This document shows positions 6,517 through 12,330 of a stretch of DNA of 21,251 nucleotides, piece by piece (positions within the stretch are counted from its first letter, which is position 1; each line of letters opens with the position of its first letter). Made by a program: the position numbers and the translations under genes. Source of the stretch: Escherichia coli (GTDB lineage Bacteria; Pseudomonadota; Gammaproteobacteria; Enterobacterales; Enterobacteriaceae); NCBI RefSeq assembly GCF_003334255.1, contig NZ_QOWU01000069.1; one strand, 5' to 3'. A model generated the notes under the pieces. The model searched no databases, was not told the origin of the DNA, and saw nothing but the letters and a program-made list of their open reading frames with translations.

Positions 6517-7837
6517 TGTGGTGGTAAAAGAGAGCGGCATTGATAACGATGAGATAAATAATCAGGACGACAGAATTTTCCCGGTTTTCTTTATGTTTAT
6601 CTCGCTCGTTAACCTCATTTTTTGTCTTGGTTTTATCTTTTTTATAGATCTGAAAATTGCTTTTGTGATTGCGTTGTCATGTTACCTGTTAATCGTAGCT
6701 CTTGAACTAAAGCATAACATTAGGTCACCTGTCTCGATCTTTATGCTGATGATGTATGTGGTATTAACAATATTGTCATGGTTCGATATTTATATCGGTC
6801 ATCGCGCTGGGATTATTATTTTTACTTCGCTGGCGCTGCTGGTTGGTGGGCTTTTACTGGCGGGTAAACCATTTACCGCATTCTACTCTGCAGGGCGGGG
6901 ATTGCGATCGCTGCACTACACTAATTCTGCCCTGTGGTTGCTGGCGTATCTGCTGTCACTTTTTTTCAGTATCTGGTTTGTTCCGGAAATTGAATTTATC
7001 CTGGTTCCCTACGCGGTCTGCATTACGGCTGGCGTGGTCACTATATTGTTAAGTCTGGTGTGGTTTGGCAATGCCAATATCAGAAAAGACGCCTTTTCTA
7101 TCAATAAATTTGATTTCAAAAGAATCACCAGTAACACCGCCGAATACCAGCAATTTTTTATCGATAAAGTGCTCTCGGACGAACAGCGTGATCATCTGCT
7201 GTTAGAGGAGCTGCAACAGGAAATAGCGCATTCCACGCTGGACAGCCATGACAATGTGATGATTTTTTGCGCCTATGATGGCGCGAAGATGGTGGGATGT
7301 ATCCGATGCGTGCTGGCTCGGCAGGGGCCTCTGCCCATTGAACATGAAGCCAACCTTGATCTGCAGAATTTAAAACGTATCGGCGCCGTTATGCAGGCTG
7401 GCAGATTTTCCATTGACGAGAAATATCGGGAAAGGCCAGAAGTCATCACTGGATTATTTAAGTGCTTAATTGAGCTGGCGCTGGCGAAAGATATTTCTTT
7501 TATTGTCGGTAATGCGGCGACGCACAGGGTAACGCTGTATATGAAACTGGGTTTTCATCTGCTGTTTTCCCCATCGGATCCGCGTTCGCGCGTTAAGTTA
7601 CCGTACGGCACCGTTTGTACGCCGGTGATTATGAATTTCTCAAACCTCATCATCAAAAATCGCAGCGAGGCAAGTAAATATGGCTTTATTGATCATGTAA
7701 ATCGTTACTTACTTGAGAGATGGTATAAGCGGGCGGTGCTGCGTTATTACCTTAAAAAAGTCAGCCATCGCCCATGGGAATTAGCGGTAAAAGATATCAG
7801 GACGCGATTAAATTCAGTCGGAGGCGCTGTAAAATGA
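6503..7837 (+). CDS. Membrane-anchored GNAT-fold N-acyltransferase-like protein (N-acyl amino acid synthase / autoinducer-synthase-like C-terminal domain)
   Basis: GGAGG then ATG at 6503; the N-terminal ~200 aa contain multiple hydrophobic helices (FPVFFMFISLVNLIFCLGFIFFI, IIIFTSLALLVGGLLLAG, LWLLAYLLSLFFSIWFV). The C-terminal domain (…GCIRCVLARQ…GRFSIDEKYRERPEVITGLFKCLIELALAKDISFIVGNA…) has the pattern of acyl-ACP-dependent N-acyltransferases. Family assignment is by eye only. Confidence 0.45.
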   Translation: MRSGNVVVKESGIDNDEINNQDDRIFPVFFMFISLVNLIFCLGFIFFIDLKIAFVIALSCYLLIVALELKHNIRSPVSIFMLMMYVVLTILSWFDIYIGHRAGIIIFTSLALLVGGLLLAGKPFTAFYSAGRGLRSLHYTNSALWLLAYLLSLFFSIWFVPEIEFILVPYAVCITAGVVTILLSLVWFGNANIRKDAFSINKFDFKRITSNTAEYQQFFIDKVLSDEQRDHLLLEELQQEIAHSTLDSHDNVMIFCAYDGAKMVGCIRCVLARQGPLPIEHEANLDLQNLKRIGAVMQAGRFSIDEKYRERPEVITGLFKCLIELALAKDISFIVGNAATHRVTLYMKLGFHLLFSPSDPRSRVKLPYGTVCTPVIMNFSNLIIKNRSEASKYGFIDHVNRYLLERWYKRAVLRYYLKKVSHRPWELAVKDIRTRLNSVGGAVK

Positions 7838-8496
7838 AAAAATTACGCTGGCTTTTATTATTAACGCTGCTGTCACCTTTTGTGCTGCACGCTGATGTGC
7901 TGGATGAACTCTTTAGCACGCGTAATCCTGCCAGGCTGGAGGCGCTGATTGAAACGTATCAGCTGTCAGCAGAAAAAGATCCCCAGGCGTTGAAAATTGT
8001 TGGTGTAGCCTGGCACCAGTTAGCGCTTGATAAGAAAGATAAGGCTGCGAAACAGGCGGTTGAATCTCTGTCTCGTTATTGCCAGTCCGCGCCTGACGAT
8101 ATGCAGGCTCTGGCCTGGCTGGGGAGTTCCTGGGCCATGTTAGCCAGAGACAGCAGCGCAGTGTATAAAAAGATCACTTACGTCAATAAGGGATTAGCCA
8201 TGCTGGATAAGGCGGTTAATGCCGCCAGCGATAATTATCAGGTAAGAGTGCTGCGCGCCAGCGTTACCTACAGTGTCCCTGAGATGTTTGACCGTAAAAA
8301 AATGGCGTTTGAGGATTATCTGTACCTCACCTCCCATTTCCCGCTCTCTCCCGACCATCAAAGCGAATTTTATTACAAGTTAGGCGTTCTGGCCGAAGAT
8401 GCAGGTAAGGCATCTCAGGCTAACGAATTCTTCAAAAAATCCGTTTCAGCTGATGAGAAGTCCGAATGGGCTAATAAATCAAAAGGGAAACTGTGA
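7834..8496 (+). CDS. Secreted/periplasmic alpha-helical protein of unknown function
   Basis: ATG at 7834 overlaps the previous stop (ATGA); signal peptide MKKLRWLLLLTLLSPFVLHA with a likely signal peptidase I site after LHA; no lipobox Cys. Confidence 0.55.
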   Translation: MKKLRWLLLLTLLSPFVLHADVLDELFSTRNPARLEALIETYQLSAEKDPQALKIVGVAWHQLALDKKDKAAKQAVESLSRYCQSAPDDMQALAWLGSSWAMLARDSSAVYKKITYVNKGLAMLDKAVNAASDNYQVRVLRASVTYSVPEMFDRKKMAFEDYLYLTSHFPLSPDHQSEFYYKLGVLAEDAGKASQANEFFKKSVSADEKSEWANKSKGKL

Positions 8497-9158
8497 TGAT
8501 CAGGATTAGAGAGGTAAGTCATCACTATTCGCTGGGGCATAGCGCAGTCCCTGCGCTACAGAATATCTCGCTGGATATTGCTGCCGCTGAAATGGTGGCC
8601 ATTACCGGGCCTTCGGGCAGTGGAAAATCTACCTTATTAAATGTACTGGGATGTTTACTGACCCCACATTCGGGGGAGGTCTTTCTGCTGGAGAAGCTGA
8701 CGAATACGCTGAATGATTATCAGAAGTCGTTATTTCGGCGGGATAATATCAGCTTCATTTTTCAGTCGTTTAATCTATTACCGGTGCTATCGGTTGATGA
8801 AAATGTCGAGTATCCGTTGATTCTGCAGGGTGTCAGAAAAGTTGAACGTAAAAAACGTGTCGCAGAGATAGTCAATGATGTCGGTCTGATGGGATTTCGG
8901 CGGCATCGGCCGGACCAGTTATCCGGCGGTCAGCGACAGCGCGTCGCGATTGCCCGGGCGCTCATTACTGACCCGAAGTATGTGCTGGCGGATGAGCCGA
9001 CGGCTAATTTAGACAGTGAAAACAGCAAAATGATACTGAATCTTATTGCCGAGATGAATCACATACGCAAAACCGCATTTATTTTCGCTACCCATGACGC
9101 AAACGTATATAACTTCGCGCATCGTATGATCAATATGACTGACGGGAGAGTCATATGA
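8496..9158 (+). CDS. ABC transporter ATP-binding protein, LolD/MacB-type
   Basis: Walker A GPSGSGKST, ABC signature LSGGQRQRVAIARAL, Walker B VLADEPTANLD; start overlaps the previous stop (TGATG). Confidence 0.9.
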   Translation: MIRIREVSHHYSLGHSAVPALQNISLDIAAAEMVAITGPSGSGKSTLLNVLGCLLTPHSGEVFLLEKLTNTLNDYQKSLFRRDNISFIFQSFNLLPVLSVDENVEYPLILQGVRKVERKKRVAEIVNDVGLMGFRRHRPDQLSGGQRQRVAIARALITDPKYVLADEPTANLDSENSKMILNLIAEMNHIRKTAFIFATHDANVYNFAHRMINMTDGRVI

Positions 9159-11109: not shown

Positions 11110-11130
11110 CAGGATAAGTCAGGAGACGTT

Positions 11131-12330
11131 ATGAGGGAGCTTGCTGGCAAACGACCATGGCGCGGATATGGATTATGCCTGCTGACGGCGCTCCCGCTGT
11201 TGGTCAATGCTGAGGGTGCTGATTTTGATTATCAGTTGCAAAGCGATCTGCGCAGCTATGTATATCAGGGAGAAAAATACAGAGATAGCCAGGATTTTAA
11301 TCTGTACTCTGACAATTTCGCGCAGCTCATGGTGAATTTCTTCTCCCGCTATCATTATCAGCGCCTTACGGTGCCCGTAAAAATAAGAGCCAGCGAAAAA
11401 TACTCTTTTGATAAACGTGATGATAAATCCGACCTGATAGTCGATGAGGCCTTTCTCGATTATTCTGCCACTGATACGCTTATTTTCAACCTTGGACGTA
11501 AACAGTTGGTTAATGGGGTGGCGATGGGAAATAACCCCACCGACTTTCTCAATGCTAATAAGTATCAGGATCGGCATCTGTCAGACCAGCAGCGCCGATC
11601 TGAGATAAAGGGGGATGATGTGGTTGGGGTCGTGAATTATTTTGCCTCATCATCTGTACAGTTTTACTATTTGCCGTCAGAAAATGCCAGCTGGCTCCAG
11701 TACGCCTGGAATATTCCATCAATGAATACCGATACCGGATTTTCCTGGTACCACGATGATATCAATGCTGTCGGTATCAACATCTCAACGACGTTTACGG
11801 ATAAGATTACGGGCTATATCGAGAATTCACTGTCTGATAAAAGAAACCGTTCGGTTATCGATGCGCAGGGGAATCTGCACAGTGAATCGGGTTTGTTTAC
11901 CGATCTGGTGCTGGGCTCACAATATACCTTTGATAACGGCATTAATATCAACGCAGAATACTGGTATAACCAACACGGCTATAGCAAAGAGGAGTATGAC
12001 GATATCTCTGCCGCTGTGGCTACGGGTAAAATAAAATACACTGATGCTTCCCGCTCTTTAAGTATGCGTAATCGGTATAAAAATAAACTGTTTTTTCGGC
12101 TGAGCGATATTCCGGTTAATGAAGATATCAGGCTGGAGCAGACCTTTATTCAGAGTTTAACGGATAATGGCTACTTTCTGCGGAGTACGGTTATTGGCCA
12201 GCTGTCGGATAATTCAACATTGCGTGTCAGCATGGAATTCTATCAGGGCAATGCGCAGAGCGAGTATGGTGGTAACCCAATCAATTACGGCGTGTTTTTG
12301 TCCTGGCAATATTTCTTGGAGAGTAACTGA
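11131..12330 (+). CDS. Putative outer-membrane (beta-rich) protein of unknown function
   Basis: AGGAG ribosome-binding site; signal peptide ending LLVNA-EGAD; composition rich in Y/N/S/T/G with alternating hydrophobic patterns; aromatic-rich C-terminal region (GVFLSWQYF). Confidence 0.45.
   Translation: MRELAGKRPWRGYGLCLLTALPLLVNAEGADFDYQLQSDLRSYVYQGEKYRDSQDFNLYSDNFAQLMVNFFSRYHYQRLTVPVKIRASEKYSFDKRDDKSDLIVDEAFLDYSATDTLIFNLGRKQLVNGVAMGNNPTDFLNANKYQDRHLSDQQRRSEIKGDDVVGVVNYFASSSVQFYYLPSENASWLQYAWNIPSMNTDTGFSWYHDDINAVGINISTTFTDKITGYIENSLSDKRNRSVIDAQGNLHSESGLFTDLVLGSQYTFDNGININAEYWYNQHGYSKEEYDDISAAVATGKIKYTDASRSLSMRNRYKNKLFFRLSDIPVNEDIRLEQTFIQSLTDNGYFLRSTVIGQLSDNSTLRVSMEFYQGNAQSEYGGNPINYGVFLSWQYFLESN

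Follow-up and report, generated by a model that had tools for sequence, protein, structure and literature searches.

A Lol-like five-gene module within a plasmid-borne acyl-biosynthetic operon of Escherichia coli, a probable exporter of the operon's own amphiphilic product

In type VII ATP-binding cassette (ABC) transporters, such as MacB and LolCDE, ATP hydrolysis in the cytoplasm drives periplasmic domains that extract or expel substrates on the periplasmic side. Beyond the routes for lipopolysaccharide (Lpt), phospholipids (Mla and others) and lipoproteins (Lol), the transit of hydrophobic small molecules through the Gram-negative periplasm and outer membrane is poorly understood. A computational prediction for the lp38 genes BBJ23-29 of Borrelia burgdorferi (PMC13078400, 2026) described two tetratricopeptide repeat (TPR) proteins, an ABC protein, a MacB-like permease, a LolA-like protein and an Omp85-type barrel. 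ApeL/ApeN together with ApeM in the aryl-polyene clusters, and LolA2/LolB2 in the flexirubin clusters, have been proposed to carry a lipid product to the outer membrane; the concept of Lol-like carriers moving lipid products is already published as a hypothesis for these three systems. In Pseudomonas, pairs of DUF1302 (barrel) and DUF1329 proteins show cofitness with a resistance-nodulation-division (RND) pump and phenotypes on fatty esters. Here, a 21,251-nucleotide stretch of Escherichia coli DNA (contig NZ_QOWU01000069.1, hereafter the window) was analysed, in which five open reading frames (ORFs) at 7834-12330, all on the plus strand, encode a secreted TPR protein, an ABC ATPase, an FtsX-type permease, a LolA-superfamily carrier and a predicted outer-membrane barrel. 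We consider it probable that these five genes form a Lol-like trans-envelope exporter, operating without a membrane-fusion protein (MFP), for the amphiphilic acyl product of the operon in which they reside, and that they do not sort lipoproteins.

The five export genes are the central stretch of a single 13-gene operon (approximately 1964-13166), with the order ketoreductase (KR), acyl carrier protein (ACP), ApeP-like dehydratase (DH), ketosynthase (KS), KS-like protein, PfkB-like protein, membrane-FeeM N-acyltransferase, the five export genes and an RpfF-type crotonase (Table 1). From 7834 to 13166, start and stop codons overlap or are separated by spacers of at most 21 nt: ATGA-type overlaps are found at the FeeM/TPR, ABC/FtsX and FtsX/carrier junctions, an overlapping TGATG at the TPR/ABC junction, a 21-nt spacer with an AGGAG Shine-Dalgarno sequence between the carrier and barrel genes, and 2-3 nt between the barrel and crotonase genes. 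A promoter consensus scan gave no excess of promoter-like sites, and the sole strong terminator-like hairpin (1610-1632) lies upstream, where it separates the first biosynthetic gene from a DUF6622 gene; the single operon was recognised because of these three features taken together. All 13 operon genes are real and under purifying selection, with dN/dS values of 0.03-0.15 at dS of 0.6-1.7 against the intact orthologs of Pectobacterium carotovorum. The window was 100% identical to part of a 99.8-kb IncK2/Z mobilizable plasmid of E. coli G8 (NZ_CP060058) and G6/7, both faecal strains from a healthy person in Germany. An index of public assemblies lists the identical barrel protein in 619 blocks, and the export block was present in only two of 5,426 complete E. 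coli genomes.

The ATPase translation contains the Walker A (GPSGSGKST), signature (LSGGQRQR) and Walker B (LADEPT) motifs, and scored 212.6 bits on the DarD and 212.3 bits on the LolD (TIGR02211) models of NCBIfam, in both cases under the cut-off (307.75 bits for LolD). The hydropathy profile of the permease places a first transmembrane (TM) helix at residues 20-38, followed by a polar stretch of about 225 aa and by TM helices at the C-terminus; with MacB_PCD between TM1 and TM2, an FtsX domain and a MacB-clade ATPase, the pair displays the features of a type VII ABC transporter. PDB matches of the permease were headed by YtrF (E = 5.7e-13) and LolC (E = 6.9e-13, residues 80-402), followed by LolE, LolF (E = 1.7e-9) and MacB. 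On the curated models it reached 123.3 bits for lolCE (TIGR02212, cut-off 362.45) and 59-65 bits for LolE and LolC (cut-offs 439-540), and the MacB model gave 193 and 25 bits for the separately encoded ATPase and permease against a cut-off of 966. A true Lol paralog was rejected on the ground that the curated cut-offs were not reached and, judged by these profiles, the module is Lol-like and not a Lol ortholog. A single FtsX-type gene was found in the window and in every syntenic locus, and the permease presumably acts as a homodimer.

The carrier spans positions 2-184 of the 184 of the PF17131 model (E = 4.8e-35), and its PDB matches were 3BUU, 'LolA superfamily protein NE2245' (E = 1.9e-37, residues 28-246), and 3BK5 (E = 7.5e-8). 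An hmmscan of this protein returned only PF17131 and a noise-level match (E = 7.1) to DUF1329, a family which we take to be LolA-like from its Pfam clan; PF03548 (LolA) was not matched, and the NCBIfam LolA3_fam model gave 27.5 bits against a cut-off of 83. The RefSeq start of the gene, at 10465 (214 aa), drops the signal peptide, whereas translation from the ATG at 10366, which is conserved in the orthologs and overlaps the stop codon of the permease gene, yields their signal peptidase I (SPI) signal. By these homologies the carrier is proposed to be a shuttle for hydrophobic cargo.

With high confidence, on the basis of modelling, the 399-aa protein is predicted to be an 18-strand AlgE/OccD-like outer-membrane barrel. 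Its structural relatives were AlgE, OccD/OprD and ChiP, with DUF1302 proteins also among the structural neighbours. Pfam gave no match for it or for 70 relatives other than isolated generic OMP_b-brl hits, with neither an Alginate_exp (PF13372) nor an OprD profile match, and the barrel-family profile found only marginal porin matches among the PDB sequences. The most conserved segment, residues ~122-161 (NGVAMGNNPTDF...RR.E..G), falls in a predicted non-strand stretch (125-161). We propose that the barrel may serve as the exit channel.

The AlphaFold2 model of the TPR protein (predicted local distance difference test, pLDDT, 91) is all-helical and forms a tandem-repeat superhelix, which places it among the TPR proteins; lipid-binding TPR proteins were among its closest structural matches, and Pfam gave a weak TPR_Slam match (E = 0.1). 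Homologs were also found in Serratia fonticola. From its model, the protein is a candidate periplasmic adaptor or second lipid-binding carrier. The initial annotation, made from the sequence, had described a LolD-like ATPase, an FtsX/LolCE-like permease, a LolA-like carrier and an outer-membrane protein encoded consecutively, preceded by a secreted helical protein at 7834-8496, and the families and coordinates obtained here agree with it. The helical protein corresponds to the TPR protein just described, with its SPI signal; the start that it gave for the 247-aa gene, 10366, is the right one, being conserved among orthologs, unlike that of RefSeq; and the profile searches and modelling of the 247-aa and 399-aa proteins led to PF17131/3BUU and to a predicted outer-membrane barrel, with no assignment to unrelated families.

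Table 1. Features of the 13-gene operon in the window; the five export genes are listed first, followed by the biosynthetic genes.
Feature	Coordinates	Strand	Product	Assignment and remarks
Secreted all-helical TPR protein	7834..8496	+	220 aa	SPI signal, cleavage about LHA/D
ABC ATPase, LolD/MacB/FtsE/DarD clade	8496..9158 (alternative GTG start 8493)	+	220 aa	Pfam ABC_tran
Type VII ABC permease, MacB_PCD periplasmic and FtsX transmembrane domains	9155..10369	+	404 aa	PF12704 and PF02687
Soluble periplasmic LolA-superfamily protein (carrier)	10366..11109	+	247 aa	PF17131 (LolA_like, renamed TP_0789-like); SPI signal
Predicted outer-membrane 18-strand beta-barrel	11131..12330	+	399 aa	Family without Pfam model
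FabG-like KR	1964-2689	+		Pfam, NCBIfam
ACP	2780-3055	+		Pfam, NCBIfam
ApeP-like/FabZ-like DH	3039-3527	+		Pfam, NCBIfam
KS	3520-4716	+		Pfam, NCBIfam; Cys motif intact
KS-like partner	4729-5667	+	312 aa	No Pfam match
PfkB-like protein (weak)	5671-6516	+		Pfam
Multi-TM protein with C-terminal FeeM N-acyl amino acid synthase domain	6476/6503-7837	+		PF21926, E = 7.2e-8, residues 244-365
RpfF/diffusible signal factor (DSF)-synthase-type crotonase, final operon gene	12333..13166	+		NCBIfam NF006452, 219.6 bits (cut-off 177)

The 13-gene order was colinear on the chromosome of P. carotovorum (barrel identity 79%) and complete on two metagenome contigs of 33% and 45% GC (barrel identity 50% and 31%, respectively). 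All of the operon genes but the PfkB-like one were present in a Lysobacter metagenome-assembled genome (66% GC, barrel 34%); in Brenneria salicis (barrel 74%) the PfkB-like gene was truncated and no crotonase match was obtained, and a decayed copy of the operon was located on a Haematospirillum jordaniae plasmid. The biosynthetic half was colinear in five loci (L010, L012, L014, L015 and L016), and in six to seven lineages, of 33-66% GC, the five export genes have remained inside this biosynthetic operon. The PF17131 gene stood immediately upstream of the barrel gene in 14 of the 15 contexts with a readable upstream flank, and barrel relatives down to 17-22% identity were still encoded directly after PF17131/FtsX genes. 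In those of the distant loci whose flank was long enough to read, the neighbours were again enzymes that depend on acyl carriers, though of other kinds. L018 carries genes for a KS-like protein, TPR, ABC, FtsX, PF17131 and barrel; L023 for a POTRA protein (396-1544), KS, 4HBT thioesterase, ABC, FtsX, PF17131, barrel and a phosphopantetheinyl transferase (PPTase); and L017 for PF17131, barrel and PPTase. A nitroreductase-family gene follows the barrel gene in L026 (152-2893). When the 8-sequence barrel alignment was used to search 100,044 species genomes, only two loci were retrieved. Judged by gene order, the cassette seems to act as a mobile export unit joined to different acyl-building clusters, and the product of each cluster is for this reason the parsimonious cargo. 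The initial annotation had likewise suggested a non-protein hydrophobic cargo made by the upstream enzymes, a suggestion to which the operon synteny and the distant linkage to KS, thioesterase and PPTase genes lend support.

As for the nature of this product, the most plausible candidates are N-acylated amines or amino acids and unsaturated acids of the DSF type. The Pfam listing of the FeeM domain was concordant in all copies, and RefSeq names the protein 'FeeM domain-containing protein'; five hydrophobic helices were detected in its N-terminal half, which has no family match and could anchor synthesis at the membrane or help to hand the product to the exporter. On the NCBIfam RpfF model the crotonase gave 155.8 bits against a cut-off of 550, and its PDB matches were RpfF (3M6M, E = 3.5e-39) and DSF synthase (5FUS, E = 1.7e-32), with generic enoyl-CoA hydratases at about 1e-16, a relationship hinting at a DSF-like step, of the cis-2-unsaturated acyl type, or at thioester release. 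The KR matched the flexirubin FlxB model of NCBIfam. Within 2780-5667, sub-threshold matches to the cispentacin proteins AmcB, AmcE and AmcF were observed for the ACP, the FabZ-like DH and the KS, and the ACP-DH-KS-unknown order is presumably reminiscent of coronafacic-acid-type cyclopentane units; the acyl moiety may be other than a plain fatty chain.

In the export model proposed here, the KR, ACP, DH, KS and KS-like protein would assemble an acyl-ACP in the cytoplasm, and the membrane-anchored FeeM domain, the RpfF-type crotonase or both would release an amphiphile into the inner membrane. The homodimeric FtsX-type permease and the LolD-like ATPase would then pull it from the periplasmic leaflet by mechanotransmission, as in LolCDE and MacB, and hand it to the PF17131 protein, which would shield it across the periplasm, perhaps with the TPR protein acting as an adaptor or as a further carrier; finally, the carrier would pass the amphiphile to the 18-strand barrel, through which it would leave for the cell surface or the surrounding medium. 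Such an exit is favoured over a Lol-type insertion because of the channel fold of the barrel and the lack of a LolB-like receptor. From synteny, homology and models, on which the transport claim rests, we infer what the cargo is, which way it moves, how it is handed over at each stage and what the TPR protein does. Tentatively, and with somewhat less than even confidence, the cassette may represent a previously unrecognised recurrent secretion route for small amphiphilic metabolites, a Lol pathway serving lipids and signals in place of lipoproteins. In it, a type VII ABC extractor would load a PF17131 shuttle, with the aid of a lipid-binding periplasmic TPR protein, and the shuttle would supply a dedicated AlgE-like barrel; the route would cover both the plasmid-borne N-acyl/DSF-like cluster and the paralogous system of E. 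coli O157:H7 described below.

Several points weigh against export of the operon's product by this module. Type VII ABC transporters are not known to flip substrates, and the path of the product to the periplasmic leaflet is unaccounted for. The hydrophobic cavity ascribed to the carrier rests on its homology to 3BUU and 3BK5, and the NCBIfam matches of the KS, DH and ACP were all sub-threshold, to FAS (fatty acid synthase)-type and cispentacin-type models alike. In L019 (1-2307) the barrel gene directly follows that of the FtsX permease, with no PF17131 gene between them, and L023 is without a TPR gene. Many of the distant contexts are short contigs, and the linkage to KS and PPTase genes could be assessed in few of them. 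The TPR ortholog of B. salicis (L015, 6232-6897) has a possible lipobox, LLTVLSSC. Literature searches on this operon and on the barrel family found no description.

The main rival explanation keeps the same machinery and has it insert the lipid product into the outer membrane of the producer itself, for a structural or protective purpose. The ApeP-like dehydratase and the match of the KR to FlxB agree with this, as do the aryl-polyene and flexirubin loci, which have LolA/LolB-like genes and products that presumably stay in the outer membrane; moreover, LolA-superfamily carriers usually deliver to a membrane. We nevertheless regard insertion as unlikely, given that the locus has no LolB-like or DUF3261 receptor, that it ends in a barrel of the AlgE/OccD/ChiP fold, whose solved relatives conduct solutes or polymers, and that FeeM- and RpfF-type enzymes elsewhere yield released amphiphiles or signals, as is known of these families.

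Self-protection or general efflux, in which a MacB-like pump would clear a toxic product or foreign compounds from the periplasm without being an obligatory export route, is less probable still. MacB/FtsX pumps are frequent in biosynthetic clusters, where they have been linked to antibacterial products, and the ATPase scored equally on the models of the darobactin exporter DarD and of LolD. However, no gene in any of the eight copies of the locus examined had a HlyD, Biotin_lipoyl or OEP Pfam match; a pump of the MacAB-TolC type was rejected, and is not encoded at the locus, because there is no gene for an MFP or a TolC-family protein, and in the proposed exporter the soluble carrier and the barrel would take the place of these missing parts. 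Besides, the dedicated carrier and barrel co-vary with the pump (14/15 readable contexts), which suggests a defined route.

A further explanation is accessory lipoprotein sorting, in which the module would serve host lipoproteins, or one whose gene lies elsewhere, as a second route of the Lol or Slam type. In support of it, the permease, ATPase and carrier are Lol-like in sequence, the TPR protein has the weak TPR_Slam match mentioned above, and the Brenneria TPR ortholog combines its possible VLSSC lipobox with an unrelated lipoprotein gene located about 3.4 kb downstream; the authors of the Borrelia BBJ23-29 prediction also allow lipoproteins as cargo (PMC13078400). The signal peptides and the lipobox scans speak against it. 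In the TPR protein (…LSPFVLHA/D) as in the carrier (…TASVTA/E), the signal peptide is of the SPI type and contains no Cys, and the barrel signal, GYGLCLLTALPLLVNA/E, has a single Cys (GYGLC) that forms no lipobox, because it stands at the start of the hydrophobic core and the residue at -1 is Leu. A strict lipobox scan of the window, from every ATG, GTG and TTG start on both strands, gave zero matches, and a loose PROSITE-like scan picked up nothing beyond spurious ORFs, either short or antisense, and internal starts at the active-site Cys of the KS. Most orthologs of the three exported proteins begin with an SPI-type N-terminus, the TPR orthologs of E. coli, Pectobacterium, Serratia and the metagenomes are without a lipobox, and the loose scan of the syntenic loci revealed no lipoprotein conserved in or near the operon. 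These results bear out the initial annotation, which had noted neither a lipobox in the three signal-peptide proteins nor a lipoprotein encoded nearby; no credible candidate emerged in the window from either scan. Since, in addition, the cassette was tied to acyl-ACP enzymes wherever enough flank could be read, E. coli already has lolABCDE, the scores fall far under the curated Lol cut-offs and LolB (PF03550) is lacking, we hold lipoprotein sorting to be improbable. Finally, the uptake of a hydrophobic precursor or signal for the enzymes through the barrel, a periplasmic binding protein and the ABC transporter is highly improbable: although the closest solved relatives of the barrel (OccD/OprD and ChiP) are uptake channels and a binding protein with an ABC transporter looks superficially like an importer, an importer was rejected on the transporter class, as permeases with MacB_PCD and FtsX domains are type VII mechanotransmission transporters, which are known only to extract or expel substrates outwards, and PF17131 is not a substrate-binding-protein fold of ABC importers.

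Around the operon, the interval 1028-1632 holds a DUF6622 membrane-protein gene and the hairpin behind it, and this gene appears to be a transcription unit apart; Pectobacterium carries a major facilitator superfamily transporter gene at this position. In E. coli the crotonase gene is followed by an IS4-type (DDE_Tnp_1) transposase gene (13271-14320). In three distant loci (L012, 12043-12576; L014, 12098-12682; L025, 13699-14274) the position after the crotonase is occupied by a 14th gene for a multi-TM protein of 177-194 aa with no Pfam match, which was found neither in the window nor in Pectobacterium and, on comparison, is unrelated to the upstream DUF6622 gene. Plasmid accessory cargo fills 14778-20896, namely a GNAT protein, two hexapeptide-repeat acetyltransferases, a ProQ/FinO protein, the YacA/YacB toxin-antitoxin pair, a resolvase fragment and, on the minus strand, a Tn3-family transposase fragment. 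In the E. coli copies L007 (CP164069.1) and L008 (UGCK01000003.1) several operon genes, including those of the permease and the carrier, are fragmented, reflecting either decay of the operon or assembly errors.

A related locus was identified in E. coli O157:H7 EDL933 (L024; NZ_CP124742, 139215-163901), a record that is labelled as a plasmid yet looks chromosomal. Its genes encode, in order, a ShlB/FhaC-type protein, AcpS, a short-chain dehydrogenase/reductase, FabZ, an ACP, an aminomethyltransferase, two KS, a hypothetical protein, an ABC protein, a secreted helical protein, an FtsX permease, a PF17131 protein, a 462-aa protein, FabD and YcdU. The 462-aa protein belongs to the barrel family by hhalign (97.9%, E = 4e-13). 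For the 218-aa secreted helical protein, hhalign against the TPR family gave a probability of only 9.5%, and the motif KG..LD.AV...N..VR.LRA.V..Y.P is visibly common to both; we regard homology as probable. Because it adjoins ycdU, the locus is probably O-island 47, on which a published review treats only the regulator GrvA, and the function of its FAS/PKS (polyketide synthase)-like genes appears to be undescribed. This paralogous FAS/PKS-like cluster shares with the window the ABC protein, secreted helical protein, FtsX permease, PF17131 protein and barrel relative, but at only 21-45% identity; it has an aminomethyltransferase and an extra ShlB/FhaC-type protein, lacks FeeM and the crotonase, and places the helical protein between the ATPase and the permease.

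What is new here is the barrel family as the putative terminal component of type VII ABC/Lol-like transport, and its tie to a FeeM/RpfF-type operon. If the export model is true, a role would follow for the large PF17131 'lipoprotein-sorting protein' family, now tagged with lipoprotein-transport gene ontology terms, and for the barrel family missing from Pfam; the fatty-acid/polyketide-like genes that neighbour ycdU in E. coli O157:H7 would likewise gain a first clue to their function. Known interbacterial and host-active signals occur among the likely product classes, N-acyl amides and DSF-type unsaturated acids. The five-gene cassette and the enzymes for its presumed cargo, carried on a mobilizable plasmid of E. 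coli from the healthy human gut, would offer a tractable model that could be moved into K-12.

Compared with the known systems, the closest described parts list is that of Borrelia BBJ23-29, which comprises secreted TPR proteins, an ABC ATPase, a homodimeric MacB-like permease, a LolA-like 'lipoprotein-sorting protein' and a barrel. The likeness drawn here is one of parts lists: the Borrelia barrel is of the Omp85/BamA-TamA type, whereas that of the window is an AlgE/OccD-like predicted 18-strand barrel, two TPR proteins are encoded instead of one, and no biosynthetic genes are described in the cluster (PMC13078400). Genes for POTRA or ShlB/FhaC proteins of the Omp85 superfamily occur in the distant variants L023 (396-1544) and L024 (1-1213), in parallel with the Omp85-type BBJ25. 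The aryl-polyene and flexirubin loci also place LolA-like proteins inside type II PKS/FAS-like clusters, and the dehydratase of the window is ApeP-like, but they rely on an RND/MMPL pump and a LolB-like lipoprotein where the window has a type VII ABC transporter and a barrel. The DUF1329/DUF1302 pairs likewise combine a periplasmic protein with an outer-membrane barrel and are genetically tied to an inner-membrane pump, although they belong to other Pfam families and draw on RND instead of ABC as the energy source.

MacAB-TolC and the MacB-family pumps (PvdRT-OpmQ, DarBCD) share with this module the type VII engine and the MacB-clade ATPase, and are common in biosynthetic clusters; in the window, however, ATPase and permease are separate proteins, and a soluble carrier and a porin-like barrel replace the MFP/TolC conduit. 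From LolCDE-LolA-LolB the module differs in having one permease gene instead of LolC and LolE, in missing the curated cut-offs, in a carrier that belongs to PF17131 and not to PF03548, in a barrel and a TPR protein that stand in place of LolB, in the lack of an encoded lipoprotein cargo and in the location of its genes inside a biosynthetic operon. What it has in common with the Lol system are a LolD-clade ATPase, a four-TM FtsX-type permease with a large periplasmic domain and a soluble LolA-superfamily protein and, as proposed here, the logic of extraction from the inner membrane, shuttling and delivery at the outer membrane.

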